This document shows positions 13,798 through 44,696 of a DNA stretch of 64,000 bases, piece after piece; the stretch's first letter is position 1, and each line of letters starts with the position of its first letter. The position numbers and the translations under genes are program-made. The DNA comes from a virus (lineage: Duplodnaviria > Caudoviricetes): positions 64,001 to 128,000 of the IMG/VR virus record IMGVR_UViG_3300028171_000090. The stretch is one strand, 5' to 3'. Under the pieces are notes generated by a model that did not search any database, was not told where the DNA came from, and saw nothing but the letters and a program-made list of their open reading frames with translations.

Positions 13798-14424
13798 ATG
13801 AAATTAGACCCAAATACATTAAACTATTCTCAACGAGAAGCTTTTGATCAGTTATTACACCTCTGCTGGTATCACAAACCTAGCATGTTTACTACAGGTA
13901 AAACACGTGCAAGCAATGTTACTTCTTTAGCATATTATCTACATAACCATAGTAAGGGTAGACTAAGCTGGGAAGCAGCATGTGAAGTTGCAGAGGTTTG
14001 GTTTAATATACAATTAGAAATACCAATACATGATTGGGGATTTGAAATATATACTGATAATAAATATGAATTTTTAAAAGCTTGTCAACCTAGTAGTGTT
14101 ATGAATAATAGAACTGGGTTAGAAAAGAGAACTGAAAACATAGTTTTAAAAGGATTACCTACACAACACTTTTACAATTCCTCTTGTCAGGAAATGCCTG
14201 ATAAAGAGCCTAAACTAATTGTGGTATTAGAAAAAATAGAGATAAATGAATTAATATATGAGAGAGAGAAGGAGAATTATTATGTGGACAGCAGGAAAGA
14301 ATATCTTATGTATGACCATATGGCTTATCAGCCGAGACGTAACTGTCTCCGTCATGAGTACACAATACATATCTTTGAAGGATGTAGAGATAGATATGAG
14401 CTATTCCAAGGGGAAGGGATTTGA
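13798..14424 (+). CDS. family A-related hypothetical protein (divergent)
   Basis: SD AAGGGAG; C-terminal YTIHIFEG; N-terminus resembles 14421. Confidence 0.7.
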   Translation: MKLDPNTLNYSQREAFDQLLHLCWYHKPSMFTTGKTRASNVTSLAYYLHNHSKGRLSWEAACEVAEVWFNIQLEIPIHDWGFEIYTDNKYEFLKACQPSSVMNNRTGLEKRTENIVLKGLPTQHFYNSSCQEMPDKEPKLIVVLEKIEINELIYEREKENYYVDSRKEYLMYDHMAYQPRRNCLRHEYTIHIFEGCRDRYELFQGEGI

Positions 14425-14963
14425 GTCATATGTTCGTATACGATGATCACATTCAACAATTTAACAAATTTCAGAAAGAGGCATTCTTACCTCTAATGCA
14501 TTATCTACCAGATATAACTTCCCGTAGATCGGAACAGACCACAGCTATTATAAATCAATGGGCATATACATTACATGGAAGATGTGAAGCATTTTTACCA
14601 ATGTATGACGCGCACTATATTGCTGAGCGTTTATATCCATTGACAATTAGTAATAGTATTAATATTGTACCGATATTAATGGATAGAAAGTTCATGTTAG
14701 AATCGGGTATTCCAGGTCCACGTTCAACAAATTTATCGGATAGAGTGGATACTTGGTGTATTTATGGTGGTAGTGTAGATTGTTTCTATAATGGGAATAT
14801 TCCAGAGAATGATAGAGGTCCTATTGCATTTATTACACGAGCATTTTCAAATGTTAATACAATAGAGTTTAGTCTTCCATATCCTGTCGGAAAATTGAAA
14901 CCGGTTGAGCATCGACGTCCGATGTATTTCTTATACATATACGTACCACCTAAAATGAAGTGA
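14421..14963 (+). CDS. family A paralogue
   Basis: C-terminal FLYIYVPP. Confidence 0.75.
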   Translation: MSHMFVYDDHIQQFNKFQKEAFLPLMHYLPDITSRRSEQTTAIINQWAYTLHGRCEAFLPMYDAHYIAERLYPLTISNSINIVPILMDRKFMLESGIPGPRSTNLSDRVDTWCIYGGSVDCFYNGNIPENDRGPIAFITRAFSNVNTIEFSLPYPVGKLKPVEHRRPMYFLYIYVPPKMK

Positions 14964-14979
14964 AAGGGAGAGTTTTATT

Positions 14980-15456
14980 ATGCGAGTAAGTCAGTTTATA
15001 CCATACGAAGTGTTCGATACCCCAGCGGGTATCGAGCCATTATATCATTATTTAGAATTAGGTAATCTAGGATTGTCTAAAAAGAAGATTAATAAGATTA
15101 TCAATGCTTTAGATGACAACTGGACAAAATGTGTTCATGTTGGTATACATATTGGAAAGCATGGTATTCCTACATTCGAAGAGATGTCAGGGTATGCTTA
15201 CAAAGAAGTTGTAAAGCATGACAACGAGTATATATGCGACATGAAGCGCATTCATGTTCTTCTAGGAACGTTTGGTATTGGTATCCGTGCATGTAGTCGA
15301 GATGAGATGGAGGAAATATGTTACGGAGATTATAGTAAGCCAATCGTTACAAAGTCTACCTTTACAGAGATACGTAAGAGTGGAAAGCGTAATATACCAA
15401 AGGTTATGACAAGTATAGCTTTCCATATTTATATCCCTGGACCAGAAACGGAATAA
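14980..15456 (+). CDS. family A paralogue
   Basis: CVHVGIH, VLLGTFGIG, FHIYIPG. Confidence 0.8.
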   Translation: MRVSQFIPYEVFDTPAGIEPLYHYLELGNLGLSKKKINKIINALDDNWTKCVHVGIHIGKHGIPTFEEMSGYAYKEVVKHDNEYICDMKRIHVLLGTFGIGIRACSRDEMEEICYGDYSKPIVTKSTFTEIRKSGKRNIPKVMTSIAFHIYIPGPETE

Positions 15457-15471
15457 CGGTATTCTAAAACA

Positions 15472-15488
15472 TACATTATTTATATGAA
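15472..15488 (+). promoter_or_regulatory. putative early promoter
   Basis: TACATTATTTATATGAA. Confidence 0.5.
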
Positions 15489-15540
15489 TACAAGATAAAG
15501 TAAAAAGCTTTATCAATAATTTACTTGGAGGAATTATAAA

Positions 15541-16185
15541 ATGACAAGTTTAGACACAATCTTCAAACCGTATCGAAAGTGTGAAAGAATGAACAAACCG
15601 AAGCGTACTGACCTAACGGTCTTTACGATTAAAAACGCATTGCTTCAAGTATTACCGCGTAAACGCACATACTTCTTTGAAGGAAAGTATGATATGTTGG
15701 CGGGTAAAATTCATGCTCAAATCCAATCATTAGGAAAAACCATTGATGGATTCTACCTATATTATGGTACAGATGAGCATAATGATTTTGAGACTTATGG
15801 TATGGATGATATTCACCTATCTAGTAGAAGACCTGGGATGGATATCGCTGACACTGATTATGAAATGTTAAAAACAGTTATTATAGATGATGGTGATGTG
15901 CCTAGCCATCTACCTAAGCCGAAACTAGGTATGATGATGGCAGTAAATGTTGAGGAGCATTTTGCAAATGGACCGACTCGTAATCTTATCCCAGATTCAT
16001 TCCATTATGTATCACCAGTATGGGATAATACATTCTTTATGGTAACATTGTCTCACTATCGTCATTCTTCTTCTATCATGGAGCCTGATGGTGTGAAGGA
16101 TAAAGAATTTACTGCAAACTTTGTTCACATCTATGTTCCGAACGTGATGGCATCAGAATTAACACTGGATGGTGAATGGGAATGA
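15541..16185 (+). CDS. family A paralogue
   Basis: GFYLYYG, VHIYVPN. Confidence 0.8.
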   Translation: MTSLDTIFKPYRKCERMNKPKRTDLTVFTIKNALLQVLPRKRTYFFEGKYDMLAGKIHAQIQSLGKTIDGFYLYYGTDEHNDFETYGMDDIHLSSRRPGMDIADTDYEMLKTVIIDDGDVPSHLPKPKLGMMMAVNVEEHFANGPTRNLIPDSFHYVSPVWDNTFFMVTLSHYRHSSSIMEPDGVKDKEFTANFVHIYVPNVMASELTLDGEWE

Positions 16186-16823
16186 AGAAGATAGTTGAAC
16201 TTAGAATATTAATAGAAGGCATCGTAGAAGAAGATAAAGGATTGAGAGCGGATATACATTCGCTCTCTTTAGATAATACATTATTGGTTCAATTCCATAA
16301 TAGAATTGTGGATAGTATTAACTCTAAATACATTTGGGATAAACTATCAATCATGGCACAGTATGTAATGGACCATTATGAACAGTTTGAATCATATGAT
16401 ATCGATATGGTCATGGCGAGAGCTGATGATATCATAGAAGCATTGAAAAAGGAAGACTCTAAACAATATGACAAATATAATAAATTTGACCCAATATTGA
16501 TAGCAGGTCAATTGCGAGCTGGCATACGAGTATTGGAAGGTGAGCGTATTATCTTTAATGATAACATGCATCAATATAGTATTTATATTGATAAAGATTA
16601 TGATAAATTAGAAAGTACAAGAAAGAAGCTAGAAGAGATTTCTAAATCATATCCGTATTGTACATTCTCTTTACAGACTCTTACGAATGATGGCATGGAT
16701 GTAATGGAAATCCAAGACGGGGAAACTAGATTCGGTAACGTTGATCATAATGTATTTAAAGGCGATTATAAACTAACAGATATAAATGTAAAAAAATTAA
16801 CGGAAGAGGGATGGCTAAGATGA
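16176..16823 (+). CDS. family B paralogue
   Basis: AQYVMDHY, KFDP, LEG, LEEISKSYPYCTF...IQDG. Confidence 0.75.
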   Translation: MGMKKIVELRILIEGIVEEDKGLRADIHSLSLDNTLLVQFHNRIVDSINSKYIWDKLSIMAQYVMDHYEQFESYDIDMVMARADDIIEALKKEDSKQYDKYNKFDPILIAGQLRAGIRVLEGERIIFNDNMHQYSIYIDKDYDKLESTRKKLEEISKSYPYCTFSLQTLTNDGMDVMEIQDGETRFGNVDHNVFKGDYKLTDINVKKLTEEGWLR

Positions 16824-17335
16824 AAGGATTCTTTGTAACGGAGAAAATGAAGGAATTGTTCTTTGGAGGAATGCAGGAGTTGGTTGAGCCTACAGCTTTA
16901 GCAACAATTGATTCAGTAGCAACGCAAGAGTTAGAGAAAGATAAAACGATTAAAGAAATTACATTTTACTTTGGAGAAAAGGATTTAGATGATTTTAAGA
17001 ATACAGCTTGCTATACAAAAACAATGATGTCTACTATTCATGAAGGTGAGAATATCAAAATAGCAACACATAGCACAACTTGTAATGTATTGATCGGTCT
17101 TATTACAACAGGGGTACACCGAGAAACATCTACGATTATTAAGAAGCTATCAGGTGGCATCGATACAGAGAACTATCATAAATATGTATCATGTGAAATG
17201 GCTGACCAATTGGTTACAGTTATTAAGAATAATAAAGTAAATAAAACGGAAGATGGAGATAGAACACATACGGATGACCTAGGTACTGTACTAAGTATCT
17301 ATGTTCCTCAAGCGTATGTGATTGGAGAAGAATAG
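16811..17335 (+). CDS. family A paralogue
   Basis: EITFYFG, VLIGLITTG, LSIYVPQ. Confidence 0.8.
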   Translation: MAKMKGFFVTEKMKELFFGGMQELVEPTALATIDSVATQELEKDKTIKEITFYFGEKDLDDFKNTACYTKTMMSTIHEGENIKIATHSTTCNVLIGLITTGVHRETSTIIKKLSGGIDTENYHKYVSCEMADQLVTVIKNNKVNKTEDGDRTHTDDLGTVLSIYVPQAYVIGEE

Positions 17336-17355
17336 GGAATCCCTATTCTTTTTTT
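17329..17355 (+). terminator. intrinsic terminator
   Basis: AGAATAGGG-AAT-CCCTATTCT then T-tract. Confidence 0.7.
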
Positions 17356-17417
17356 GTAATCATTTATGAATATCTGTACATCCATATAATAGAGAGAAAC
17401 CGGAGAGGGAGATATTC

Positions 17418-17957
17418 ATGACTGAAACAATAGAGATGAAACGATATGTACTACAACGCATCTTAACAAATAATATAAAAGAAATTAAGAAGGCGTTACA
17501 TAATCCAAAATTAGAAATACTAACATCAGAAGAATTATCTACCATCGTTAACGGTGCTTCATGTGAAGAATTAAATGAAGCGACTGTTATTTTTTATATT
17601 GGAAACGCTGATATTTATCGTTTCGAACATAGTGCTACATATAATGAAAATCAATTCGTATATAAGGACGTACCTGAAGTGAAAAAAACGGTAACGTCTG
17701 CAAAAGTAGTACGACCAGTACTGACCGACATGTCAGTTGGTTTTAAACGAAAACAAACAACTCATCGTACTCAGACTGGACAAATGCGTGACACGTCCAC
17801 TTCAGATAATTGCAAATCTGTATTCGATGTAAACAAGTTACATGTAATAGAAACATATGAAATGGATAAGACAGTCAAAGAACATCCGTCTTATCACTAT
17901 AAAGAAGATAGTAAAGTGTATCTTCATATTTACATTCCAGAGAGTAGAATCCGTTAA
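17418..17957 (+). CDS. family A paralogue
   Basis: VIFYIG, PVLTDMSVG, LHIYIPESRI. Confidence 0.85.
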   Translation: MTETIEMKRYVLQRILTNNIKEIKKALHNPKLEILTSEELSTIVNGASCEELNEATVIFYIGNADIYRFEHSATYNENQFVYKDVPEVKKTVTSAKVVRPVLTDMSVGFKRKQTTHRTQTGQMRDTSTSDNCKSVFDVNKLHVIETYEMDKTVKEHPSYHYKEDSKVYLHIYIPESRIR

Positions 17958-17979
17958 GGATTCTACTTTTCTTTTTTTT
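17943..17979 (+). terminator. intrinsic terminator
   Basis: AGTAGAATCC-GTTAA-GGATTCTACT then T-tract. Confidence 0.8.
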
Positions 17980-18002
17980 CGTAATAAAGATATAATTGAC
18001 TA

Positions 18003-18019
18003 TATATTATAATAGTGAG
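18003..18019 (+). promoter_or_regulatory. putative early promoter
   Basis: TATATTATAATAGTGAG. Confidence 0.7.
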
Positions 18020-18095
18020 CACCATAAAAAAAGGTTGAATGTTATCCATGAAACATTACCTACTCAATTAAAACTTGAGTAAGAAAAGGGGAACT

Positions 18096-18560
18096 ATGAA
18101 ATCGATTAAAGTATCACCTTCTCAAAACAAGCCATCGGAAGAACTCACTTCTGAAATGATGGTATTGTTAAAAGAACACATTTCCGCAGGAAAGCTTTCT
18201 AAAAAGAACTTTGAAGTTCTTAAAGTCGAGTTAGCGAAAGGTGACATTTCAGAATTACATGTATACGATAAATATATTGACGATTACAACCGTTTCTGTG
18301 GCGGTGCATGTACGACAGTTTATCGTCAAGATATGGGATATGTATGGATTCAACGAGTAAAAGTATTGACATCGGATATTATTATCGGTGCAAATGATGA
18401 CTACGATGATCCTTTTAGTGTAGGATTATTATCCCAGGTATCAGGTCGTTGCAAACAAAATCAATTTGCAGCAACTGTAACATACAACCATAAGATTCGA
18501 AAGGATCAGAGAGTTACAAAAATTGTTGTTATTAAATCACTTCATGTGTATTTAGGTTAG
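18096..18560 (+). CDS. family A paralogue
   Basis: ELHVYD, KVLTSDIIIG, LHVYLG; start moved to the ATG with SD AGGGG. Confidence 0.75.
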   Translation: MKSIKVSPSQNKPSEELTSEMMVLLKEHISAGKLSKKNFEVLKVELAKGDISELHVYDKYIDDYNRFCGGACTTVYRQDMGYVWIQRVKVLTSDIIIGANDDYDDPFSVGLLSQVSGRCKQNQFAATVTYNHKIRKDQRVTKIVVIKSLHVYLG

Positions 18561-18686
18561 TAACACCTAGGAGAAGGGTCCCCATACCCTCCCTCCTAGC
18601 TTACAATATAGATATAAAAACTATGGTCCGATATACCAGACAAATATCATTCATACAATTAAAGATTGTATGAGGAGGAGAAACTT

Positions 18687-19196
18687 ATGTTAAAAATCGA
18701 TACGAATTCAATTTTAAGAGTAACCGATGAAGTGGTACAAACTTCAGGGGAAGAGTATAAACAAGCATTTTTAAATCAAGGATTATTAAATAAAACTGAA
18801 GCAAATATGCTACATGGTATTTACACTAATCCACAAAATAAATTTACACATGTACGAGTGTACTTTGGAACAGTGCAAGGTGAGTTCTTTGCTTATGATG
18901 CATGCACAGCTAAATTCCATACTACACATCAAACATTTGCAAAACGAAATAAAACAGTTGAAGTAACTGTTCAATTTGGTACTGTGACTAAAGGGACTGA
19001 ATCTATTGACCGTACTGGCGCTAACTTAGAGAATTCCAATATGGTTCAAGCTGGATTCAAAGCTACAGATGTAACAGCAACAATTACTATCGAACGATTA
19101 CATGAAACGTTTGGACAGCAACGTGCTGCAATTGCATTACCTGTAACAACATTAAATATCTATATTCCGCAAGAACGTTTACAAGAAAATAAATAA
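18687..19196 (+). CDS. family A paralogue
   Basis: VRVYFG, VQFGTVTKG, LNIYIPQERL; SD GAGGAGG. Confidence 0.85.
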   Translation: MLKIDTNSILRVTDEVVQTSGEEYKQAFLNQGLLNKTEANMLHGIYTNPQNKFTHVRVYFGTVQGEFFAYDACTAKFHTTHQTFAKRNKTVEVTVQFGTVTKGTESIDRTGANLENSNMVQAGFKATDVTATITIERLHETFGQQRAAIALPVTTLNIYIPQERLQENK

Positions 19197-19204
19197 TAAA
19201 AACA

Positions 19205-19278
19205 TATAAAGGTTTGAGGGTTGTCCATAACAACCCTTACTATCTAATGAAAAATTAGATAGCTAAGAGGAGAAAACA
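19205..19278 (+). promoter_or_regulatory. structured 5' leader, copy 1 (CCAUA-loop hairpin + GAAAA-loop hairpin)
   Basis: AGGGTTGT-CCATA-ACAACCCT; CTATCTAAT-GAAAA-ATTAGATAG; then CTAAGAGGAG SD. Confidence 0.7.
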
Positions 19279-19800
19279 ATGATCGAAATGACTACAGCAG
19301 ACGTATTAGAAGTAACAGAAAAAGAGATTTTAGAAAAAGGTAATGAGTGGGTAAATCACTTCTTTACTTTAGATTACGTTACATCTAATGAATTAGAAGC
19401 TTTAATGAATGTATATCGTGCACATACTATTAACAAAGTTGAAGTATACTTTGGTGCACGACATGTTGAAGAGTTCCTATTTAACGGTTGCACACAAAAA
19501 GAAATTCGCATGAAGAAACCTGGTGAAGAAGAATCTCGTGTAGTGAATATCTTCCCAGTTGCAGAATTTGGTGCAGTTAGTTTAGGAAACTATGTTGAAG
19601 TAAATCGTAACACTGTTGTGCATTCACGACCAATGATTAACTTTGACAATATCAATGCTACAGTTTGTCATCATACAAGTCGTAAAACAGTTCGTCGATT
19701 TGAAGTTGGACCTCGTAATAGAGCTTCACATTCACATGAAATTGTATTGCGTGTATACATTCCACAAGAACGTGTACGTCCAGGTCATGAAGTAAAGTAA
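19279..19800 (+). CDS. family A paralogue
   Basis: VEVYFG, FxxxGCTxKEI, LRVYIPQERV; close paralogue of 19882. Confidence 0.85.
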   Translation: MIEMTTADVLEVTEKEILEKGNEWVNHFFTLDYVTSNELEALMNVYRAHTINKVEVYFGARHVEEFLFNGCTQKEIRMKKPGEEESRVVNIFPVAEFGAVSLGNYVEVNRNTVVHSRPMINFDNINATVCHHTSRKTVRRFEVGPRNRASHSHEIVLRVYIPQERVRPGHEVK

Positions 19801-19807
19801 TATTATA

Positions 19808-19881
19808 TAATAAGGTTCGAGGGCTGTCCATAACAGCCCTCACTATCTAATGAAAAATTGGATAGCTAAGAGGAGACGGCA
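19808..19881 (+). promoter_or_regulatory. structured 5' leader, copy 2
   Basis: GAGGGCTGT-CCATA-ACAGCCCTC (compensatory change versus copy 1); CTATCTAAT-GAAAA-ATTGGATAG. Confidence 0.7.
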
Positions 19882-20382
19882 ATGATTAAATTAACTACAG
19901 AAAAAGTACTAACAGTACAACCTATCGATATTCAAGAAATGGGTGAAGAGTATGTGAATCACTTCTTTACCTTAGGCTATATCACTTCTAACGAGTTTGA
20001 TGTTTTATTAGATGTATTTAAAGACAAAGAAATCGATATTGTTGAAGTGTATTTCGGAGGACGTCATAACGAAGCATTCCGTTTACAAGGATGTACTGAG
20101 AAAGAAATTGTTCGAGAACATAAGACTACAAGTCGAACTGATACAGTTAAAATTGAACCTGTATTAAACGATGTGGAAGTTGGAAGATATGTCGAATACA
20201 ATCGTAAACCATTATCGACCAATCAATTACCAGCATTTAATGCAGATCATCTTACTGCTACGGTATGCTCCCATGTCGGTCGTGGAGCGACACGTGGTTT
20301 TGGAGGCATTGTCACTCCTCATTCTATCCCGAGTTTCAGAGCATTGCGAGTATATATTCCTCAGAGTCGTTTATCTGAGTAA
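19882..20382 (+). CDS. family A paralogue
   Basis: YVNHFFTLGYITSNE, VEVYFG, LRVYIPQSRL. Confidence 0.85.
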   Translation: MIKLTTEKVLTVQPIDIQEMGEEYVNHFFTLGYITSNEFDVLLDVFKDKEIDIVEVYFGGRHNEAFRLQGCTEKEIVREHKTTSRTDTVKIEPVLNDVEVGRYVEYNRKPLSTNQLPAFNADHLTATVCSHVGRGATRGFGGIVTPHSIPSFRALRVYIPQSRLSE

Positions 20383-20390
20383 TATAATGA

Positions 20391-20422
20391 AAGGTAGGTT
20401 CATTCCTACCTTTTATTTTTTT
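20391..20422 (+). terminator. intrinsic terminator
   Basis: AAGGTAGG-TTCATT-CCTACCTT then T-tract. Confidence 0.7.
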
Positions 20423-20483
20423 GTCTGTTTTACTATGCTCCTGACCGTAAATCTATGTTCCGTAATAACCCCCTTTTCAGTTA

Positions 20484-20500
20484 CATATTATATTAGTGAA
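20484..20500 (+). promoter_or_regulatory. putative early promoter
   Basis: CATATTATATTAGTGAA. Confidence 0.6.
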
Positions 20501-20540
20501 TACATCAAAACTATACTAATTATAAAGGGGATTTATTATT

Positions 20541-20852
20541 ATGAAAAAATTTACTGACTCAGAATTTTCAAGATTTATGCAGGAGAACGAAGCTTATGTT
20601 AACGGTACAATCATTAGAACTGGTATCTTAACTAAATTTGAAGTAGAAGAATTATTTGACGAAGTTACTTTAACTGACGATGTTGAGAACGTTATCTTCT
20701 ATACTGGTTTCAAAGATGGTGCAGCCTTTAAAGCCGCCGTTGAAGTACATGTCGTCCATCCATTAGATATCACCAAAGTATTTAAAGATAGGACAATCCA
20801 CATATTCATACCGCAGATGCGTATCATGAAGAGTGGATTAGGAGTAGCCTAA
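20541..20852 (+). CDS. family A paralogue, minimal 103-aa form
   Basis: VIFYTG and IHIFIPQMRI, without the central region. Confidence 0.75.
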   Translation: MKKFTDSEFSRFMQENEAYVNGTIIRTGILTKFEVEELFDEVTLTDDVENVIFYTGFKDGAAFKAAVEVHVVHPLDITKVFKDRTIHIFIPQMRIMKSGLGVA

Positions 20853-20874
20853 TTCTAGGTTATTCCTTTTTTTT
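20841..20874 (+). terminator. intrinsic terminator
   Basis: GGAGTAGCCTA-ATTC-TAGGTTATTCC then T8. Confidence 0.75.
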
Positions 20875-20910
20875 GTCTCCATTATGAACTCCCCACCCAT
20901 CTTCACTCTT

Positions 20911-20922
20911 AACAATATATTG
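20911..20922 (+). promoter_or_regulatory. putative late promoter with 5' hairpin
   Basis: AACA-ATATAT-TG then GAGACAA-CAAAC-TTGTCTC. Confidence 0.6.
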
Positions 20923-20968
20923 AGACAACAAACTTGTCTCATATCTTACTTAAAAGGAGTGGATATAT

Positions 20969-22015
20969 ATGGGTTTCATCGTTGATATTTCCCATCATAA
21001 TACTGTAGATTGGTCTTTAGCTAGTAAATACTTAGACTTAGCAATCATTCGTGTCCAATACGGTTCTAACACGGTTGATAGAAAGTATAAGTCTTTCGTT
21101 GAAGGCTGTAAACAATACGGTATTCCTTTCGGTCACTATGCATATGCTTTATTCGTAAGCGTCGAAGATGCTCGTGTGGAAGCACGTGACTTCATGAAAC
21201 GTGCGGATAAAGATGCGAAGTTCTTAGTTGTCGATGTAGAAGAATTGACAATCAAAGGACGCCCTGATTTAATGCTTCCTGCTACACAAGCTTACGTTGA
21301 TGAGTTACGTAAAGCAGGATGGAAAGTTGGCTTATACACTGGTCATCACGTATGGGATGAATTCCGTATGGATAAAGTGGATGCTGACTTCGTTTGGGTA
21401 CCACGTTACGGAGCTAACAAATCTCCTAACCCAGATGGTCCTAAACCAAAAATGCGTGTAGATATTTGGCAATATACTGAGTACGGTAACATTCCAGGTA
21501 TCCAAACACGTTCTGATGTAAATATGCTATTAGGTGATAAAACACTTGAATGGTATACTGGAGCGAGTGTTCCAACACCACCTCCAAGCATTGCACCTGA
21601 CAGTGGTAGTCTTGTTGATAAAAACGCAGGTCTTCCAATTGGTCGTGTAAAAGTAACTGGCACTGGTGTACGTTTACGTGAACAGCCATCTACAAATTCA
21701 AGAATCGTTAAAACACTTGATAAACTTGAGTATTTATACTACGGTTATGTCAAAGGTGAAGACGGTTACATTTGGTGGAACTTAGGTTCTGGATGGGTTC
21801 GTTCTGACGTAGGTGGAGACTTTATTTCTGGTGGAGCTGTAGTAACAGCATCTGTATTAAATGTACGTACAGGTCCAGGAACAAACTTCTCTATTAAGAA
21901 ACAACTTACAAGCGGTGCACAAGTACGCGTTTGGACACGTCAAGGTGATTGGTACTGCATCAATGATGACGAATGGGTTCATGGTGCATATATCACAGTT
22001 CGTGATAAATACTAA
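20969..22015 (+). CDS. endolysin: GH25 muramidase (PlyB-like) + two SH3b domains
   Basis: IVDISHHN, GIPFGHYAY, FVSVEDARVEARDF, DVEE, DIWQYTEYG; C-terminal VRLREQPS..S and LNVRTGPGTN...GWV/WVH SH3b repeats. Confidence 0.93.
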   Translation: MGFIVDISHHNTVDWSLASKYLDLAIIRVQYGSNTVDRKYKSFVEGCKQYGIPFGHYAYALFVSVEDARVEARDFMKRADKDAKFLVVDVEELTIKGRPDLMLPATQAYVDELRKAGWKVGLYTGHHVWDEFRMDKVDADFVWVPRYGANKSPNPDGPKPKMRVDIWQYTEYGNIPGIQTRSDVNMLLGDKTLEWYTGASVPTPPPSIAPDSGSLVDKNAGLPIGRVKVTGTGVRLREQPSTNSRIVKTLDKLEYLYYGYVKGEDGYIWWNLGSGWVRSDVGGDFISGGAVVTASVLNVRTGPGTNFSIKKQLTSGAQVRVWTRQGDWYCINDDEWVHGAYITVRDKY

Positions 22016-22019
22016 GAAA

Positions 22020-22050
22020 GAGAGTAGACTTCGGTCTACTCTTCTTTTTT
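22020..22050 (+). terminator. intrinsic terminator
   Basis: GAGAGTAGAC-TTCG-GTCTACTCTT then T-tract. Confidence 0.85.
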
Positions 22051-22108
22051 GTCATTTTTTAGAAATCATCCTACATTATATTGAGAAACCTTAGAGGAGG
22101 AAATAGAA

Positions 22109-22684
22109 ATGACGACAGACTTACATAAGGCTGAGAAAGTATATGAAAATATTCGCTTAGAGAATATAGATAAAGGACTTAATAAAATTACAAAATTATG
22201 TAGAGATGGCTCATTACTACATGAGCATCATGATATTATCTTAGATAGACTCGCACAAGGTGAAAAGGTTATCGATAGTATTGCAATCTTCGAAGGTCAG
22301 AATGATATGTTTACATTTATCGATGAGGCTACAAACAAGCACATATCTCGAATTGGTGTAAAACCATTCGATTCATTTGATACTCATAAAGTTACAGTAT
22401 TATTTGGAACTTATCAACCTAAAACAAGAAAAATTAAAAACTTTGCATATATGAATCGTAATGGTGTTATGCAAACTGAAATTATGGAATCATGTACCGC
22501 TTGTGATGAAGATGGTGTAGCAATTCCAATGTTTATAAATAATGTTATTATATGCGAAGTAGAAGTAGAAATAGCTACACGCCCAAATAATGAAATGCAA
22601 TGGTATAAACCTGCTGACGTTATGGGTGTTTACCGACATATTATGGTATATGTACCAACTACAGAAAAGGGAGAGAATAAATAA
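22109..22684 (+). CDS. family A paralogue
   Basis: SIAIFEG, VLFGT, IMVYVPT. Confidence 0.8.
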   Translation: MTTDLHKAEKVYENIRLENIDKGLNKITKLCRDGSLLHEHHDIILDRLAQGEKVIDSIAIFEGQNDMFTFIDEATNKHISRIGVKPFDSFDTHKVTVLFGTYQPKTRKIKNFAYMNRNGVMQTEIMESCTACDEDGVAIPMFINNVIICEVEVEIATRPNNEMQWYKPADVMGVYRHIMVYVPTTEKGENK

Positions 22685-23289
22685 TGATTACACTATCAAA
22701 AGAACTTACATTACAACATATCGAGAAGGACGGGCTGGATAAATTCCTTCCTAAGAATTCATCATTACACTTCTCACAAGATCATACAGATGCAATTAAA
22801 ACATTACTACAAGATGATACATATGGACTTAAATTAGTACACTTATACGATGGTGGGGATTGCTCATTATTCTCGAAGGACTTCTTAGACTTCGCATTTA
22901 AGTGTATTGATATGGATGAAACAGTTCCTACGAATATGCAATACCCTGTGGGAGAAGTTCCAAATATCTCTGAAATTATTGGTAATAAAACTACCACTCG
23001 ACGAGTGGATATCGTTAAGGGTGCTGACGCTATTCTTAAAGGTAATAAATGTATCCATACGTCACAGAAAATGACACATACTGGACAATTGGAAATCATG
23101 ACAACTACATCCGAAAAACTTACTAAGTTCCCGGGTAAAAAAGAGATTATTATTGCACTAGTAAAAGATTATGAATCTCATCGTATATTTGCAGAACGCT
23201 CTGCTACAAGTACGAAACCTGAATACTCATTACATATTCTAATGCCAGGTACCTTATTTGAAGAATTTACAGAAAGTGAGGAGAACTAG
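22684..23289 (+). CDS. family A paralogue
   Basis: LVHLYDG, LHILMPG. Confidence 0.75.
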   Translation: MITLSKELTLQHIEKDGLDKFLPKNSSLHFSQDHTDAIKTLLQDDTYGLKLVHLYDGGDCSLFSKDFLDFAFKCIDMDETVPTNMQYPVGEVPNISEIIGNKTTTRRVDIVKGADAILKGNKCIHTSQKMTHTGQLEIMTTTSEKLTKFPGKKEIIIALVKDYESHRIFAERSATSTKPEYSLHILMPGTLFEEFTESEEN

Positions 23290-23290
23290 T

Positions 23291-23830
23291 ATGCATATAT
23301 TTGGAGACGGACTAGAACATATTGGTCAATTAATAAAAACAATGCAAGCACGATATGATCACATGGTAGAGAATAATATCATATCGGAAATGGATAGAAA
23401 TATTACAGCTACATTACTGAAGAACTTATCATCTGATAAGTTTCTTCGTTTTGTATATCATCATAAAGATGATATTAACTCTCAAGAAATGTCTATCACT
23501 GACGTATTATATAATGAAAAGTATTACGGTAAAAATGATGAGTGTATGGAGATGTCAAGTATCTTTGTAAAGGCTATTGATAGTGATATTGAATTTGGTG
23601 ATAAGCATATTCGCCAGACAGTAGAGACTATTTTTGGTAAAACACGTCAGACTCTCATTGCTGATACAGATAAAGAATTTGAGAACTTTGATATTGAGAA
23701 GCCTCATATCTTTATTAGAACAATTACTCGTTGCGTAAAAGAGTTAACTACAGGAAAAGAGCATGATGAAGTGTATAATGAACTACATGTATATCAGCCT
23801 AATATTAACCCTACAATTCCAGTAGAATAA
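23291..23830 (+). CDS. family A paralogue
   Basis: DIEFG, LHVYQPN. Confidence 0.75.
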   Translation: MHIFGDGLEHIGQLIKTMQARYDHMVENNIISEMDRNITATLLKNLSSDKFLRFVYHHKDDINSQEMSITDVLYNEKYYGKNDECMEMSSIFVKAIDSDIEFGDKHIRQTVETIFGKTRQTLIADTDKEFENFDIEKPHIFIRTITRCVKELTTGKEHDEVYNELHVYQPNINPTIPVE

Positions 23831-23857
23831 AAAACGTAACAAATGTGTATTCAGTCA

Positions 23858-23874
23858 TACATTATATTAGTGAG
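23858..23874 (+). promoter_or_regulatory. putative early promoter
   Basis: TACATTATATTAGTGAG. Confidence 0.7.
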
Positions 23875-23884
23875 TAAGCCATTA

Positions 23885-23955
23885 ATAAAGGTTTTAGGGT
23901 TGTCCATAACAACCCTCCCCCATACTTATAAGGTATGGAGATAAGGAGCTAAGAA
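23885..23955 (+). promoter_or_regulatory. structured 5' leader, copy 3
   Basis: TAAAGGTTTT-AGGGTTGT-CCATA-ACAACCCT, then second hairpin CCATAC-TTATAAG-GTATGG. Confidence 0.65.
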
Positions 23956-24426
23956 ATGGAATTATACGTAAGAGAAGAACTTATGAAGTACAATGAATCT
24001 ATGATCCCGCATGGCGGATTAATGAAAGATTCAGAAAAGAAAGTATTAGTTTCACACTTAAAGAAGAATGATGATATCACAGGAGTTCGCTTCTTCTTTG
24101 GGAATGGAGAGTTATCGCCATTCAAGAAACTAGCGTGCTATGACAGTAACTTTAAACAAACGTCTGACCGAATGGAAATGCGTCGTATTAAAGTCTTATC
24201 AGGTAACGTGTCAGTAGGAAAAGTGGAAGACTCAGTCTATCCAAAGTATCAACCCAATAGTGAAAAACGAAGCGAATGCTTCGTTGATTCTAATCAGTTT
24301 ACTATGACCCTAGCAGAAGATTTAGTTGGAGTTATACATGCTGACAAAATGAAATATAGAGGCGATGGAAGTATTATGTATATACACATTCCAGAGAATC
24401 GCATTCTGCAAGCAGAACAGGGATAA
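23956..24426 (+). CDS. family A paralogue
   Basis: VRFFFG, KVLSGNVSVG, MYIHIPENRI. Confidence 0.85.
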   Translation: MELYVREELMKYNESMIPHGGLMKDSEKKVLVSHLKKNDDITGVRFFFGNGELSPFKKLACYDSNFKQTSDRMEMRRIKVLSGNVSVGKVEDSVYPKYQPNSEKRSECFVDSNQFTMTLAEDLVGVIHADKMKYRGDGSIMYIHIPENRILQAEQG

Positions 24427-24472
24427 AGCTAAAAGCTTTATCCTACTAATTTATTTGAGGAGAGATATTACA

Positions 24473-24973
24473 ATGAAAACACTATCACATGATGAAACAT
24501 TACACTCACTATTCTCACCGAACGTATTAGGTTTAAAAGACTTTATGTTAATGCATAATGAATTACACGTTCTACTCGCAACATTACACAAAGAAAAATT
24601 TGACTTAGTTCATATATACTCGGATCGAAATGAAGCGTATTCTAAAACACAAAAGTTTATAGATAATGCTTTAACTCGTATGTTAGTAAAATATGTATCA
24701 GTGACTGAACCAGATACTAAAATTACGTATGCTACAGCAAATTATGTATTATACGGAGAAGCTACATGCGGTTCATTAGAGTTTGCGGATGTAGCCTATG
24801 ATTGTCTTATGGAGCATCCACGTATAGGAGAAGTCGAACGACCTCATGTACAAGGAACTTTAAATGAAAGCAAGTTACAAATTGTTCAGGTAAATCGTTA
24901 TGGAACGAATGACGATGGGCAAGAACATGACCTCAAAGAATTACACATTTATATTCCTAATAATCGTATATAG
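24473..24973 (+). CDS. family A paralogue
   Basis: LVHIYSD, VLYGEATCG, LHIYIPNNRI; SD GAGGAG. Confidence 0.85.
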   Translation: MKTLSHDETLHSLFSPNVLGLKDFMLMHNELHVLLATLHKEKFDLVHIYSDRNEAYSKTQKFIDNALTRMLVKYVSVTEPDTKITYATANYVLYGEATCGSLEFADVAYDCLMEHPRIGEVERPHVQGTLNESKLQIVQVNRYGTNDDGQEHDLKELHIYIPNNRI

Positions 24974-25043
24974 GTTTATCAATGGTAACACCGGATGGAG
25001 ATAAAACTCCATCCGATAATATAATAGAAAGAGGTTATTAAAA

Positions 25044-25598
25044 ATGACTATTCTAACTAAAGAGGTGGCTTTACAATCATTAGACAGTAATGTGATTTTG
25101 GGAATTAGAGGATTTCAACCAGCTGAGAATGTAATTGCAGTTCTACGGCATCAATTGCAGTTCAGTAATATTATAGATGATGTAGCGGTATACATGGGAT
25201 ACAAGGAGTATCCTGTATTCACTATGCACGCTACCACAAAAAGAGATGGCATATACAAGCTTGATGGTGGGACATTAGAAATAAAGCAAAAGGTAACACC
25301 GGAATGGTTACTCATTCCAAAAGACATCAAGATTCCAGACACACATGTAAATGCGGCGGTTATATTCGATCCATTCAATAGTGGTCGATGTGTGGATGTT
25401 GATATCGATGTCAGAGGTGAGTCAAAAGACTATGACCCTAAAAATCTCCATGAGAATATTTTAATCATTCGAGTCACACATTCCTATCAGACTCTGGAAA
25501 ATGAAGAAGTAACTGATTCGGATATTAAGTCCAGGTTACATGTCTATATACCAGATACCGTTATGGAATTGTGTTACAACTACAGAGGGATAAAATAA
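25044..25598 (+). CDS. family A paralogue
   Basis: VAVYMG, LHVYIPD. Confidence 0.8.
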   Translation: MTILTKEVALQSLDSNVILGIRGFQPAENVIAVLRHQLQFSNIIDDVAVYMGYKEYPVFTMHATTKRDGIYKLDGGTLEIKQKVTPEWLLIPKDIKIPDTHVNAAVIFDPFNSGRCVDVDIDVRGESKDYDPKNLHENILIIRVTHSYQTLENEEVTDSDIKSRLHVYIPDTVMELCYNYRGIK

Positions 25599-25611
25599 GG
25601 GGGAAATAATA

Positions 25612-26136
25612 ATGACTACATTAAAACATGAAGAAGCATTCTTATCAATATTTGGACCAAGACCTTTTGGGATTAGTAGATTAGAATTAGGAGACGGAGA
25701 TAGATCAGCATTCATAGGTGTTTTCACAACACATCATATTGATGCAGTACACATTTATGCTGATGCCGCAGAAAGAGGTCCTGCATATCGCAAGTTCCTA
25801 TCAAATGCATGTACAGGAAGAGACTTCACATATACAATGATGGAGGATGGAAAAGAAGTAACAATCCGTCATGTGGCTATGCCTGTAGTGATAATCGGAG
25901 ATATTAAAATAACAAAAGCAAAAGCAAAAGCATCATTCCAAGCATATGGATATGGTTATAATTATGATACAGAAATCATCGAAGGTGTAAATATCGTCGA
26001 GGGTAAAACATTTGAAATTGGAAACATAGAAGATTTTGGTACACGTAACTTATTTGCAACTATGATCGTTAGGGAAGTAACGAGAGAAGAACAACCAATA
26101 AGTTTACATTATGAATTACACGTTTGTTTAACATAA
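25612..26136 (+). CDS. family A paralogue
   Basis: AVHIYAD, VIIGDIKI, LHVCL; close to 24473. Confidence 0.8.
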   Translation: MTTLKHEEAFLSIFGPRPFGISRLELGDGDRSAFIGVFTTHHIDAVHIYADAAERGPAYRKFLSNACTGRDFTYTMMEDGKEVTIRHVAMPVVIIGDIKITKAKAKASFQAYGYGYNYDTEIIEGVNIVEGKTFEIGNIEDFGTRNLFATMIVREVTREEQPISLHYELHVCLT

Positions 26137-26158
26137 CTAATTAGGAGGAATTTTAACA

Positions 26159-26665
26159 ATGTCGGAATTAAAAAATTATAAAACACTTAATATGGCGGAA
26201 CGAAAGGCGATTTTAATCGGAACGATTATCAAGCGTACGCGAGGTGCATTAACTAAATCTCAGATTGAAGCTGTAGTGAGTAATATGGATGTGATGGAAC
26301 AATACAGAATTAACGTATATGAAACTTCAAAGAAATTTGCTGAAAAATGTTTTGATAAAGATATTACTAAATCTAAAGCAGGTAACACAGTACCAACTTA
26401 CGTAAAACAATATTGCCGTGTAATCGTAGGTAATGTAGAAGTAGGTAAGAAGATTGAGAAGGAAGCTACTTTCTATAGTCAAGCTGAAAGTAAATTACAA
26501 TTACCAAACTTCTCAGTTGATGAAGTAGCAGTAATTGAGATTACAAGTAAAGACCCTAACTTTGATAAGATGCATAAAGAAGTTGCAATCTACTTACCAG
26601 AGGGTCAACCATATAAAATGGATAAAGAGATAGAAATCATTACGAAGTTATTTGACATCGTTTAA
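26159..26665 (+). CDS. family A paralogue
   Basis: INVYE, VIVGNVEVG, VAIYLPE. Confidence 0.8.
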   Translation: MSELKNYKTLNMAERKAILIGTIIKRTRGALTKSQIEAVVSNMDVMEQYRINVYETSKKFAEKCFDKDITKSKAGNTVPTYVKQYCRVIVGNVEVGKKIEKEATFYSQAESKLQLPNFSVDEVAVIEITSKDPNFDKMHKEVAIYLPEGQPYKMDKEIEIITKLFDIV

Positions 26666-26676
26666 TGATTAGGGGG

Positions 26677-26709
26677 AGGGTAAGCAAAAGCTTACCCTTA
26701 TTTTTTTTT
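26677..26709 (+). terminator. intrinsic terminator
   Basis: AGGGTAAGC-AAAA-GCTTACCCT then long T-tract. Confidence 0.85.
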
Positions 26710-26744
26710 GGGTTCATAGTAAATATTCACTCCTTCTATAAATA

Positions 26745-26761
26745 TACATTATAGTAGCGAA
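26745..26761 (+). promoter_or_regulatory. putative early promoter
   Basis: TACATTATAGTAGCGAA upstream of nvRNAP beta-C. Confidence 0.6.
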
Positions 26762-26806
26762 TGATGTAAACTATAACATCATAACTATAGGGAGTGTGAT
26801 TTTAAA

Positions 26807-28867: not shown

Positions 28868-28891
28868 ACCATTGGTCTACTCTTCTTTTTT
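28862..28891 (+). terminator. intrinsic terminator
   Basis: GAGTAGACC-ATT-GGTCTACTC then T-tract. Confidence 0.75.
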
Positions 28892-28970
28892 ACATATATT
28901 TGGTAATAAATAAAAATAATGACAACTAATTATTATAGAAAGAAAATACATTTCCTGAGGAGGAACTATA

Positions 28971-30014: not shown

Positions 30015-30101
30015 TATAAAGAAGTAACACTTTTCTCTTAAAAAATTAGAACTTATAATTAATATACTCAGATATAAAAAGTGGAGAGGGGACCATTAAC
30101 A

Positions 30102-30578: not shown

Positions 30579-30582
30579 TACG

Positions 30583-30613
30583 AGATAGGGAGAAATCCCT
30601 ATCTTTATTTTTT
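30583..30613 (+). terminator. intrinsic terminator
   Basis: AGATAGGGA-GAAA-TCCCTATCT then T-tract. Confidence 0.85.
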
Positions 30614-30658
30614 GTCATTTTTATACAATAACAATAAATTCAACATTTAATTTGATTA

Positions 30659-30675
30659 TACATTATATAGGTGAG
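30659..30675 (+). promoter_or_regulatory. putative early promoter
   Basis: TACATTATATAGGTGAG. Confidence 0.7.
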
Positions 30676-30733
30676 ATTGGATAATGAATCCAAAAGCTAC
30701 TAATGTATAAAGCTACATAGAGGAGGAATAACA

Positions 30734-37201: not shown

Positions 37202-37307
37202 GGAGAGATGAGACTGCTCATCCCAATAACCAAATATTAACAAACTACAATAACCATAACAAATTATTGTAGGAAAAATATACTTAACTTAATTGGAGGA
37301 AATTAAA

Positions 37308-37616
37308 ATGACTAAAACAATCGAAATGAACGAAGAATTCTTCAAAGGACTTTCAGCTTTCCTAGTAGAAAACAATGGAGTTGACTATGATCCTGAAGAT
37401 TTAGATTTATTAGAAATGGTTGTTAAAGGTAACCACCAATATGCTGGTGAAGTACTTGGAGCAAATAAAAATGAAGAAGAACCAGTAGCTTTAGAATTAG
37501 ATGGATTAGTTACATACCAAGCTTCTTATCGTGCAGGTGCAGATGAGTCTGAAGGTAACTTCGGTATTGGTATTACTGCTGGTGAAGAATTAGTTGAATT
37601 AGCAAACGAAGCTTAA
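37308..37616 (+). CDS. acidic HU/IHF-fold-like protein 1 (putative)
   Basis: LELDGLVTYQASYRAG...GITAGEELVELAN resembles HU beta-strands and last helix; about 23 D/E versus 5 K/R. Confidence 0.45.
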   Translation: MTKTIEMNEEFFKGLSAFLVENNGVDYDPEDLDLLEMVVKGNHQYAGEVLGANKNEEEPVALELDGLVTYQASYRAGADESEGNFGIGITAGEELVELANEA

Positions 37617-37680
37617 TTATAAATTGTAGTAAACGTATTACTATTAAAATAAACTAACCAATATACTGGAGGAAATTACA

Positions 37681-38010
37681 ATGGCTAAAACAATTAAAAT
37701 GGACAAGAAATTCTTTGAAGGACAAACACAATTCATCGAGGACAACATGCGTGTACGTTTCGAAGACGCATCATTCGTTGAAGATACTGTGAAAGGTTAC
37801 TACCAATACGTTGGTACTGTAATCGGCGAAGAATTAAAAGATGCTGAAAATGGAGCATCAGTAGTAGTTAAACTTGCTGACTACATCGAGTTCAAAGGTG
37901 TTAAACAGGAAGATGAAATCGTTATCGGAATCACAGCTCATGCTGAGATCAAGAAACGTATTAAATCAGATGCTCAACTAGAAGAGTTAGAAGAATCTGA
38001 CGAAGAATAA
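37681..38010 (+). CDS. acidic HU/IHF-fold-like protein 2 (putative), paralogue of 37308
   Basis: Shared KTI.M...FF.G, VKG..QY.G.V+G and IGITA. Confidence 0.45.
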   Translation: MAKTIKMDKKFFEGQTQFIEDNMRVRFEDASFVEDTVKGYYQYVGTVIGEELKDAENGASVVVKLADYIEFKGVKQEDEIVIGITAHAEIKKRIKSDAQLEELEESDEE

Positions 38011-40695: not shown

Positions 40696-40741
40696 GATTA
40701 AACTTACGACAATGTATTAATAAGATACAGGGAGAGATTAT

Positions 40742-43414: not shown

Positions 43415-43417
43415 AAG

Positions 43418-43448
43418 GTACATCCCACTCGGGATGTACTTATTTTTT
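43418..43448 (+). terminator. intrinsic terminator
   Basis: GTACATCCC-ACTC-GGGATGTAC then T-tract. Confidence 0.8.
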
Positions 43449-43458
43449 TGTAGGAGGA

Positions 43459-43986
43459 ATGGAAATTATGAGAGCATTTGGAGCTTCAGGAGTGACAATG
43501 CCGTCACCCGACAAACTTACTATTTATTATAAAAGAGAAGCTTTAAGGGATTTAATATCAAAAGACCTTAATGCAAAAGAACGTCATAAGCAAGGAGACA
43601 AATTACTTAAATCTCTTGCTCATGCAACAGGAATGATTGATACTTGGGAACGGTTCAAGTTGAATCCGCTATATGAAGTGGAATATATTTTATATGGAAA
43701 TTGTGGACTATTAGGTTACTCTTATGATGGAGTACCAGTAGTATTTGATATAAATAAAAATGGTGCGTTTATGTTAGTAAAGTTTACAACTTACTTAGAT
43801 TGTGTAGCACCTGAAGAATTACGAGTAAGTGATATTATGGATTTAAACGCTGTATTCTTAGCGGAAGAACTCTTTATGGATTTGGGAATTGAACGTTGTG
43901 GAGAAACTGTATCGAAAGGTTATCCGACAGTATACATGATTTTACCTAGGACGTACCAGATACCAGACCCATATATAAAATCGTAA
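43459..43986 (+). CDS. family A-related hypothetical protein
   Basis: YILYG, GYPTVYMILP. Confidence 0.7.
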   Translation: MEIMRAFGASGVTMPSPDKLTIYYKREALRDLISKDLNAKERHKQGDKLLKSLAHATGMIDTWERFKLNPLYEVEYILYGNCGLLGYSYDGVPVVFDINKNGAFMLVKFTTYLDCVAPEELRVSDIMDLNAVFLAEELFMDLGIERCGETVSKGYPTVYMILPRTYQIPDPYIKS

Positions 43987-44004
43987 TAACAGTATCCTTG
44001 GCTA

Positions 44005-44021
44005 TACATTATATCTGTGAG
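44005..44021 (+). promoter_or_regulatory. putative early promoter
   Basis: TACATTATATCTGTGAG. Confidence 0.7.
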
Positions 44022-44103
44022 TATAGTTAGTACTCGTTAAATAAATAAGCTTCCCAGGATAGCAGGGACAAAAAGCATATGCTATCATGTGTCTTAAATA
44101 CAA

Positions 44104-44169
44104 TACTGTAAAAAACAGTAGGGTATAGAAAAACTATTAGATAAGCATAGTATGTAAAAAGCATACTAT
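44104..44169 (+). promoter_or_regulatory. leader with three tandem AAAAA-loop hairpins
   Basis: TACTGT-A5-ACAGTA; ATAG-A5-CTAT; ATAGTATGT-A5-GCATACTAT, immediately before SD AGGAGGAG. Confidence 0.55.
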
Positions 44170-44186
44170 CAGGAGGAGAAACCGAA

Positions 44187-44696
44187 ATGACAATCACAAC
44201 AGTAGCTAGACCAGAAATGATGAAGGACATCGCGTTAGAGAATCAGAAGATTAATCTTTTAGAGTTAATCGTTCAGAAAGCTGAAGGGGATATCTCTACT
44301 ACATACCTAAAGAAAATCATTGATACTGTCGATGTAAGTTTAGGTTACATGGTACACGTAACTCGTGACCCAAAGGAATTTGAAAACACACTGACATTGC
44401 GTAACTATAATCGTTCAAATTCAGTATCAGGTTCTGAAGGAACTGAAGAGTTTGGACAATGCGTAATCGGTAATGAATTAGTATTTGGAACTCGTAAGAG
44501 TACAGAACATCACGGAATGTTTATTCCAAGTAAAACAACGTTTGATTTCGTTAAGCCTGAGTTTGATGAAACAAAAGTGAATGTCGTTACAATCCATCGA
44601 CATGTATGGAATAACTTGTCTGGTTCTGGAATTCCTGAATTTGACTCACATTATTTTATCCTAAATATCTATGTTCCCAGAATGGACTTAATGTAA
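44187..44696 (+). CDS. family A paralogue
   Basis: MVHVTRD, VIGNELVFG, FDETKVNVV, LNIYVPR. Confidence 0.85.
   Translation: MTITTVARPEMMKDIALENQKINLLELIVQKAEGDISTTYLKKIIDTVDVSLGYMVHVTRDPKEFENTLTLRNYNRSNSVSGSEGTEEFGQCVIGNELVFGTRKSTEHHGMFIPSKTTFDFVKPEFDETKVNVVTIHRHVWNNLSGSGIPEFDSHYFILNIYVPRMDLM

Follow-up and report, generated by a model that had tools for sequence, protein, structure and literature searches.

An array of about 18 diverged paralogs of an unrecognized protein family in an AR9-like soil jumbo phage

The array and its phage

The DNA analyzed here, referred to as the window, is a stretch of 64,000 nucleotides corresponding to bases 64001 to 128000 of a 223-kb virus record in IMG/VR (IMGVR_UViG_3300028171_000090). 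It carries about 18 diverged copies of a single protein family, designated family A, most of which form an array. The open reading frame (ORF) listing shows a run of same-strand genes from 13.8 to 26.7 kb with products of 150 to 215 amino acids, and the array occupies the interval between genes for a UvsX-like recombinase and the C-terminal portion of a nonvirion RNA polymerase beta subunit (nvRNAP beta-C), where a 12-kb same-strand block holds 17 members. In total the slot contains 21 genes, namely, the 17 family A genes, a pair of genes starting at 13798 and 14421, an orphan at 16176, and an endolysin gene with GH25 and SH3 domains in the middle of the array (genes are named by start coordinate throughout).

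The split RNA polymerase beta gene that follows the array (26807 to 28867) shares 39 to 40% identity with the nvRNAP beta-C of Bacillus phages PBS1 and AR9, and megablast of the array DNA against GenBank phages returned no match; together these identify the source as an uncultured, distant AR9-like jumbo phage. The public sequencing runs containing it were soil metagenomes, and the host is probably a member of the Bacillota. Four related phage contigs were reached through protein databases (L001, L002, L007/L008, and L013). Window positions 12000 to 31900 were also recovered from four soil runs labeled metatranscriptomic (X2, X3, X5, and X7), on contigs of 19 to 117 kb at a depth of 9 to 52.

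Membership of family A

Pairwise BLAST connected only a few of the array genes, and an iterative hidden Markov model (HMM) search within the window converged at 14 members. A second HMM was built from 55 sequences, comprising these 14 strong members and relatives from other phage contigs; 15541, 22684, 23291, and 44187 were omitted to avoid circularity. Searched against all 93 window ORFs of at least 80 amino acids, it recovered the 14 strong members at E values of 2e-44 to 2e-19, followed by 44187 (E = 4e-6), 15541 and 23291 (both 3e-4), and 22684 (1e-2), with the best nonmember ORF at 0.16. These four moderate members were also recruited once orthologs from the four relatives were added to the profile, and hhalign comparison of their ortholog groups with the core profile gave probabilities of 92.7% (15541), 93.7% (22684), 89.0% (23291), and 68% (44187). 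The motif [LIVMFA]x[IV][YF][IVL]P was found in the C-terminal 30 residues of 14 of the 93 ORFs, compared with a mean of 0.1 and a maximum of 2 in residue shuffles. Family A is thus real and has about 18 copies, all on the plus strand, with 17 between 14980 and 26665 and one at 44187:

14980..15456, + strand, strong member, 158 amino acids; HMM E = 1.6e-31; orthologs 98% identical in L001, 89% in L002, and 59% in L007
15541..16185, + strand, moderate member, 214 amino acids; HMM E = 3e-4; hhalign 92.7%; terminal VHIYVP
16811..17335, + strand, strong member, 174 amino acids; HMM E = 4.6e-34; hhalign 96.6% to the 23956 group
17418..17957, + strand, strong member, 179 amino acids; HMM E = 8e-37; terminator-like site at 17940-17970 after the gene
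18096..18560, + strand, strong member, 154 amino acids; HMM E = 1.3e-27; ortholog only 58% identical in L001, none in L002
18687..19196, + strand, strong member, 169 amino acids; HMM E = 5.4e-39; blastp matches to 19279 and 19882
19279..19800, + strand, strong member and modeled copy, 173 amino acids; HMM E = 3.5e-41
19882..20382, + strand, strong member, 166 amino acids; youngest duplicate, of 19279 (44% identity; blastp E = 1e-40; tree)
20541..20852, + strand, short form, 103 amino acids; HMM E = 1.8e-19; own promoter motif and terminator
22109..22684, + strand, strong member, 191 amino acids; HMM E = 8.2e-34; extra paralog in L002 (hhalign 99.5%)
22684..23289, + strand, moderate member, 201 amino acids; HMM E = 1e-2; hhalign 93.7% over 132 columns
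23291..23830, + strand, moderate member, 179 amino acids; HMM E = 3.2e-4; hhalign 89%
23956..24426, + strand, strong member, 156 amino acids; HMM E = 3.9e-38
24473..24973, + strand, strong member, 166 amino acids; HMM E = 2.1e-30; hhalign 99.2% to the 25612 group; no L001 ortholog
25044..25598, + strand, strong member, 184 amino acids; HMM E = 6.3e-36
25612..26136, + strand, strong member, 174 amino acids; HMM E = 2.4e-25; terminal motif degenerate (LHVCLT)
26159..26665, + strand, strong member, 168 amino acids; HMM E = 9.1e-30; last gene before the nvRNAP beta promoter; terminator at 26676-26699
44187..44696, + strand, moderate member and outlier, 169 amino acids; HMM E = 4.2e-6; hhalign 68% as a single sequence

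The short form at 20541 matches the profile in two pieces (positions 1 to 69 and 128 to 172), having kept the N-terminal part and the terminal strand while the central strands are absent. The outlier at 44187 lies 17.5 kb from the array, has a blastp match to 26159 (E = 0.002), and is preceded by a promoter motif at 44006. The family A HMM identified no members in the rest of the 223-kb genome outside the window.

An initial annotation of the window had proposed about 20 copies of this family and listed 22 genes, 17 as clear and 5 as weaker members. The existence of the family held up in the in-window and 55-sequence HMM searches, the hhalign comparisons, and the motif shuffles, and membership was supported for 16 of the 17 genes listed as clear and for 2 of the 5 listed as weaker (18096 and 25612). 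The remaining four (13798, 14421, 28971, and 43459) were not shown to be members; hhalign gave no signal between family A and 28971, 43459, or 16176.

Conserved blocks and predicted fold

Paralogs of family A are only 10 to 25% identical to one another, and a single Phe forms the sole invariant or near-invariant column. The three colinear blocks described in the initial annotation (a V.VYFG strand, a V..G.V..G strand, and the terminal LxIYIP strand) proved to be the most conserved columns of the alignment, and all three fall in predicted strands. Likewise, the proposed combination of a conserved scaffold with variable segments was borne out by the paralog alignment, in which 33 conserved columns, all hydrophobic, Gly, or Pro, form a mostly hydrophobic scaffold and lie within predicted secondary structure elements, with the length variation confined to the hairpins between them.

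AlphaFold2, run on 19279 with an alignment of the 14 paralogs, returned a confident model (predicted local distance difference test [pLDDT] score, 83.4; predicted template modeling [pTM] score, 0.78). The chain is predicted to run from a short strand through two helices, the V.VYFG strand, and a helix that carries the Phe into a meander of six mostly long strands, the last of which ends in LxIYIP. On this model, family A would be an undescribed alpha+beta domain of ∼170 residues. The products are soluble single-domain proteins with isoelectric points of 5.2 to 8.9, mostly acidic to neutral, and no signal peptide or membrane segment was evident in them. No polar residue is shared among the phage paralogs, making a common catalytic or ligand site unlikely, and because conservation is limited to the hydrophobic core and glycines, the proteins are unlikely to be enzymes and more likely to be binding modules. 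Homodimer prediction for 19279 with a 48-row alignment scored 0.00, a value that counts neither for nor against binding.

Comparisons with Pfam, PHROGs, and NCBIfam identified no match to family A at the curated cutoffs (best E values, 0.002 to 0.2, to unrelated models), and none to a nucleic acid-binding family in Pfam or NCBIfam. Foldseek searches of the PDB and BFVD with the 19279 model found nothing at an E value of ≤1e-3, although this does not in itself prove the fold to be new. The best template modeling score in an ESM Atlas shape search with the same model was ≤0.39, a VIA wide search similarly returned nothing above noise, and an ESM Atlas feature search with 19279 and with P0039, a two-domain protein from Clostridia, gave no usable match. 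The earlier description of the family and its fold as unrecognized therefore agrees with both the profile searches and the structural search made with one modeled copy. Across 1.84 billion cluster representatives, hmmsearch found only 36 proteins at an E value of ≤1e-3. Family A was absent from AR9 and 0305phi8-36 and was not found in GenBank phages by tblastn; an IMG/VR pattern scan with 14980 found nothing, and a scan anchored on the endolysin found unrelated phages only. Two candidate matches were rejected. A profile comparison with PDB sequences linked the family to coproporphyrin ferrochelatase (9vi5; E = 0.0016; 21.6 bits), which was judged spurious, and P0029, a 574-amino-acid protein with four repeats from the search of cluster representatives, matched only in the V.VY.G strand region and is a false positive, being a different, cysteine-rich repeat protein.

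Age of the expansion and selection on the copies

The gene order of the array is preserved in the four relatives (L001, L002, L007, and L013), and in a maximum-likelihood tree nearly every window paralog falls in its own well-supported clade with one ortholog per phage. At the deepest split among these phages, identity is 77% for nvRNAP beta and 86% for the endolysin. The presence of one-to-one ortholog clades across four contigs separated to this extent places the expansion before the origin of the phage clade. Family A orthologs at the same distance are 26 to 59% identical and thus evolve faster than these core genes, and their divergence is uneven, with some at 26 to 30% and others near 60%.

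Gene-wide ratios of nonsynonymous to synonymous substitution (omega) for family A orthologs ranged from 0.03 to 0.48. By column class, omega was 0.22 to 0.28 in columns that vary between paralogs and 0.12 to 0.14 in core columns, so that the variable columns are under relaxed but still purifying selection; neither the gene-wide nor the column-class analysis gave any sign of positive selection. The idea that the "hypervariable" segments record an arms race is therefore not upheld, since between orthologs these segments are being conserved.

Compared with its closest relative, L001, the window shows synonymous divergence of 0.07 to 1.0, with jumps between neighboring genes (for example, at 14421, 18096, and 25612), which suggests that alleles within the array have been replaced through recombination. 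Copy content also differs slightly, in that L001 lacks 24473, whereas L002 lacks 18096 and carries an extra paralog of 22109. A gene accordion is a recent and reversible tandem amplification, as at poxvirus K3L, which leaves near-identical copies whose number varies between close isolates. The proposal that family A arose by such gene accordion duplication does not fit paralogs that are 10 to 25% identical, fall into one-to-one clades, and differ by only one or two copies between close relatives. Rather, the variation in synonymous divergence and the gain or loss of single copies describe the block as a recombination mosaic with slow turnover.

Transcription signals and the equivalent slot in AR9

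Features in and around the array other than the family A genes are as follows:

18004..18023, + strand, early-like promoter motif cTATA[CT]ATTATA..GTGAG, a repeated intergenic motif
2752, 5804, 18004, 20485, 22073, 23859, 26746, 30660, 37110, 44006, and 46447 (starts), + strand, all copies of the early-like motif, intergenic
19216..19237, 19819..19840, and 23895..23916, + strand, leader hairpin in the leaders of 19279, 19882, and 23956
20969..22015, + strand, GH25 and SH3 endolysin, not a family member; Pfam families recorded on orthologs; late-type AACA-N6-TG at 20911

Every copy of the early-like motif is intergenic, on the plus strand, and ahead of a gene, at 22 to 183 nucleotides from the gene start for the array copies and those at 26746 and 44006. 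Four copies lie in the array (18004, 20485, 22073, and 23859), and others precede nvRNAP beta (26746), DNA ligase (30660), and 44187 (44006). The motif is retained at matching intergenic sites in L001, L002, L007, and L013, including the most distant relative. It is close to, but not the same as, the early consensus of AR9, AAATATATATTAT-N6-G (PMC5312081), and by this analogy it is probably the early promoter of the phage, used by the virion RNA polymerase. The corresponding slot of AR9, flanked by its UvsX-like and nvRNAP beta-C genes, contains two small genes, g087 and g088, behind the experimentally validated early promoter P087 (PMC5312081), which lies at the syntenic site. The slot and the kind of promoter are therefore alike in the two phages, while AR9 has two unrelated genes there compared with 21 here; no similarity was found between AR9 g087, g088, or g091 and family A or between g087-g088 and the 13798/14421 pair.

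Terminator-like hairpins are enriched (25, compared with 6.1 expected), whereas host sigma-70-like sites are not (73, compared with 80 expected). Promoter-like and terminator elements thus do accompany many of the copies, as the initial annotation had noted. Terminators and the AR9-early-type motif divide the block into short operons, and the family A proteins are accordingly most likely synthesized as infection begins. The AR9-type late motif, AACA-N6-T[AG], has only two occurrences in the intergenic DNA from 13.3 to 29 kb, one ahead of the endolysin at 20911 and the other at 23838; elsewhere it precedes minus-strand genes of the virion side (upstream of 50435-51529, 57375-59288, and 59386-60135). 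With the late motif at 20911, the endolysin inside the early array looks like a separately timed late gene.

The leader hairpin was matched three times, compared with zero expected. It consists of a 9-pair stem, AGGGTTGT-CCATA-ACAACCCT, with one compensatory pair and is conserved in the relatives L001, L002, and L013; a second, variable hairpin comes after it. Lacking a T tract, the leader hairpin is not a terminator, and an Rfam search of the region from 13 to 30 kb, which includes it, returned nothing relevant.

Homologs in Clostridia

Three database matches of 355 to 567 amino acids consist of two or three family A domains per chain, each ending in I.IY[IL]P. Alignment of the bacterial domains with the phage profile gave a probability of 97% (E = 1e-10; 136 columns), and on this comparison the proteins from gut Clostridia are true homologs, present in few chromosomes only. 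One of the fusion proteins is encoded on a 43-kb contig near recD2, tdk, spoVT, and gap-pgk-tpi; the GAPDH of this contig shares 89% identity with that of an uncultured Clostridia metagenome-assembled genome. Homologs were found in 3 of 301 sampled genomes from the order of that genome, in ordinary chromosomal surroundings, and the long fusion form was represented by only nine protein clusters in a collection of 5.8 billion proteins. The five genomes nearest L011 had no homolog, and a search of genome contigs with P0039 found nothing. The bacterial domains retain polar residues (R, D, D, and Q) and a SHSWAG motif that the phage copies have lost. In two Clostridia genomes, on L011 (7084-11319) and L101 (8741-13512), a homolog, an uncharacterized protein of ∼875 amino acids, and a protein of 85 to 109 amino acids form a recurring trio beside a LysR regulator; no toxin domain was detected in the ∼875- and 85- to 109-amino-acid neighbors.

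Possible roles of family A

Family A may be a panel of early, nonenzymatic binders, each with its own conserved partner, that derives from an old lineage-specific expansion; this is the reading we favor, tentatively. By analogy with AR9, the virion RNA polymerase would read the array as short early operons. Each paralog would then bind a distinct, nonredundant partner, as one-to-one ortholog retention under purifying selection suggests, and these partners would most probably be host macromolecules, in the service of host takeover or counterdefense, much as the initial annotation had proposed. A more specific version would make the family a new domain superfamily whose alpha+beta fold is also new and occurs both in soil jumbo phages and in a few gut Clostridia, with the ∼18 phage proteins forming a stable set of early inhibitors or adaptors, each of which neutralizes or redirects a host protein of its own; this version seems rather unlikely. 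If it were true, the family would be a large unexplored source of host takeover and antidefense proteins for Bacillota.

Several observations weigh against a panel of binders aimed at the host. Purifying selection on the variable segments is at odds with a rapid arms race against host defenses, and the ordinary housekeeping surroundings of the Clostridia homologs show a cellular role for the domain, one that does not have to involve phage-host conflict. The assignment of the promoter motif to the early class draws solely on its likeness to AR9. The metatranscriptomic-label libraries cannot show transcription, because their contigs (up to 116 kb) cover everything; therefore, either these soil libraries carry much phage DNA or the phage is very abundant and active in those soils. 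Finally, since one member was modeled, with the family as its alignment, the sharing of a fold among members follows from sequence profiles.

The main rival reading is that the paralogs co-assemble as subunits of one heteromeric early structure, such as a scaffold, ring, or lattice, with the V.VYFG and LxIYIP edge strands as interfaces and the variable parts facing outward. Near-complete one-to-one retention in four relatives is what an obligate complex would give, the two or three domains per chain of the bacterial homologs resemble fused neighboring subunits, and the terminal beta strand is the most conserved element. However, close relatives differ in copy content (the absence of 18096 from L002 and of 24473 from L001 and the extra copy in L002), and some orthologs have diverged to 26 to 30% identity compared with near 60% for others, so that this arrangement is judged unlikely. 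If the copies do co-assemble, they would form a new phage-built structure.

Two further roles are less likely than a panel of binders. Family A proteins could be accessory factors for phage transcription or DNA metabolism, for example, specificity or regulatory partners of nvRNAP or of replication and recombination enzymes, which would explain the location between uvsX and nvRNAP beta. The nvRNAP beta, recombinase, and ligase genes are nearby under the same type of promoter, and the zinc ribbons of phage G offer a precedent (PMC7824862). Yet the family is missing from AR9, PBS1, and other phages that have these polymerases, showing that the machinery does not need it, and the mostly acidic to neutral isoelectric points and the lack of a nucleic acid-binding family match make this role quite improbable. 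The phiKZ-like jumbo phages are known to have families of paralogous proteins inside the head, and by comparison with such inner-body paralogs, family A could be packaged in the head or ejected. The size and solubility of the proteins are compatible with this, although apart from the sites before the endolysin and at 23838 the array lacks the late motif and has the early-like motif instead. The position after YIP is occupied by E, Q, G, T, N, or D in different copies, so there is no conserved protease site either, and packaging is very improbable.

The array consists of homologous genes on one strand of a 223-kb genome, as is characteristic of tandem paralog arrays in jumbo phages, whose genomes exceed 200 kb, and such arrays are already on record (PMC5646251, PMC7824862). 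Hua et al. 2017 (PMC5646251) described more than 30 similar genes in phages G and 121Q, and Iyer et al. 2021 (PMC7824862) proposed a role as transcription factors for the zinc ribbons of phage G, of which there are about 35 copies. Family A resembles those arrays in that many diverged copies of one small, uncharacterized protein lie together on a single strand and take up several percent of a jumbo genome. It differs in being another family, without a sequence or fold match, and in having fewer copies (18); moreover, in place of "very similar genes" its copies are very old, have one-to-one orthologs, and have tandem-domain homologs in Clostridia. What is new is the family itself, the unmatched predicted fold, the great age with one-to-one orthology, and the link to the tandem-domain proteins of Clostridia.

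The host takeover module in the terminal redundancy of Bacillus phage SPO1 comprises 24 small early genes (gp37 to gp60), which are mostly unrelated to one another and are transcribed by the host RNA polymerase. It serves as a working model for the block, where small genes of early type with strong ribosome-binding sites are likewise grouped into short operons in the genome of a large phage. By contrast, family A is one family, lies inside the genome, and has a virion RNA polymerase-type promoter motif, and no PHROG match links the two. Poly-immunity loci of polymorphic toxin systems (SUKH/SMI1 and other Imm families), found in bacteria and large viruses, are tandem sets of diverged paralogs, occasionally fused, that encode nonenzymatic alpha+beta binders. 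They offer an analogy in their tandem diverged paralogs, their multicopy fusions, and their occurrence in both bacteria and large viruses, but family A has no Pfam or NCBIfam immunity match and no fold match, and no recognizable toxin gene lies beside the phage or Clostridia copies.

Large blocks of duplicated, uncharacterized genes recur across jumbo phages, so far without explanation. Family A offers a tractable case, with 18 small soluble proteins, a confident model, orthologs in four or five genomes, a promoter class, and cellular homologs, and the domain, which at present is in no database, merits a family entry. Should the copies be specific binders of host proteins, they would provide many new tools and targets for Gram-positive phage-host biology.

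The 13798/14421 pair and other paralogous genes

Two genes at the head of the array form a mini-family of their own:

13798..14963, + strand, separate mini-family of two genes (13798-14424 and 14421-14963); mutual hhalign 93.8%

Against family A, hhalign gave a probability of only 14.7% (E = 0.0018) over a colinear alignment of 68 columns, which follows the order strand, helix with Phe, and Gly-containing strand. A remote relationship to family A is thus possible but unproven from these sequences. AlphaFold2 modeling of the 13798/14421 type (pLDDT, 68) predicted a larger N-terminal helical part followed by a beta-alpha-beta-beta-beta part, and the latter weakly recalls a glyoxalase-type module. 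A third copy of the mini-family was identified on L007 (1567-2163).

Elsewhere in the window, three further pairs of adjacent paralogs were found, namely, 4175/4632 (34% identity; 4175-5084), 8167/8872 (26%; 8167-9489), and 37293/37681 (33%; 37293-38010), indicating that tandem duplication is common in this phage genome.

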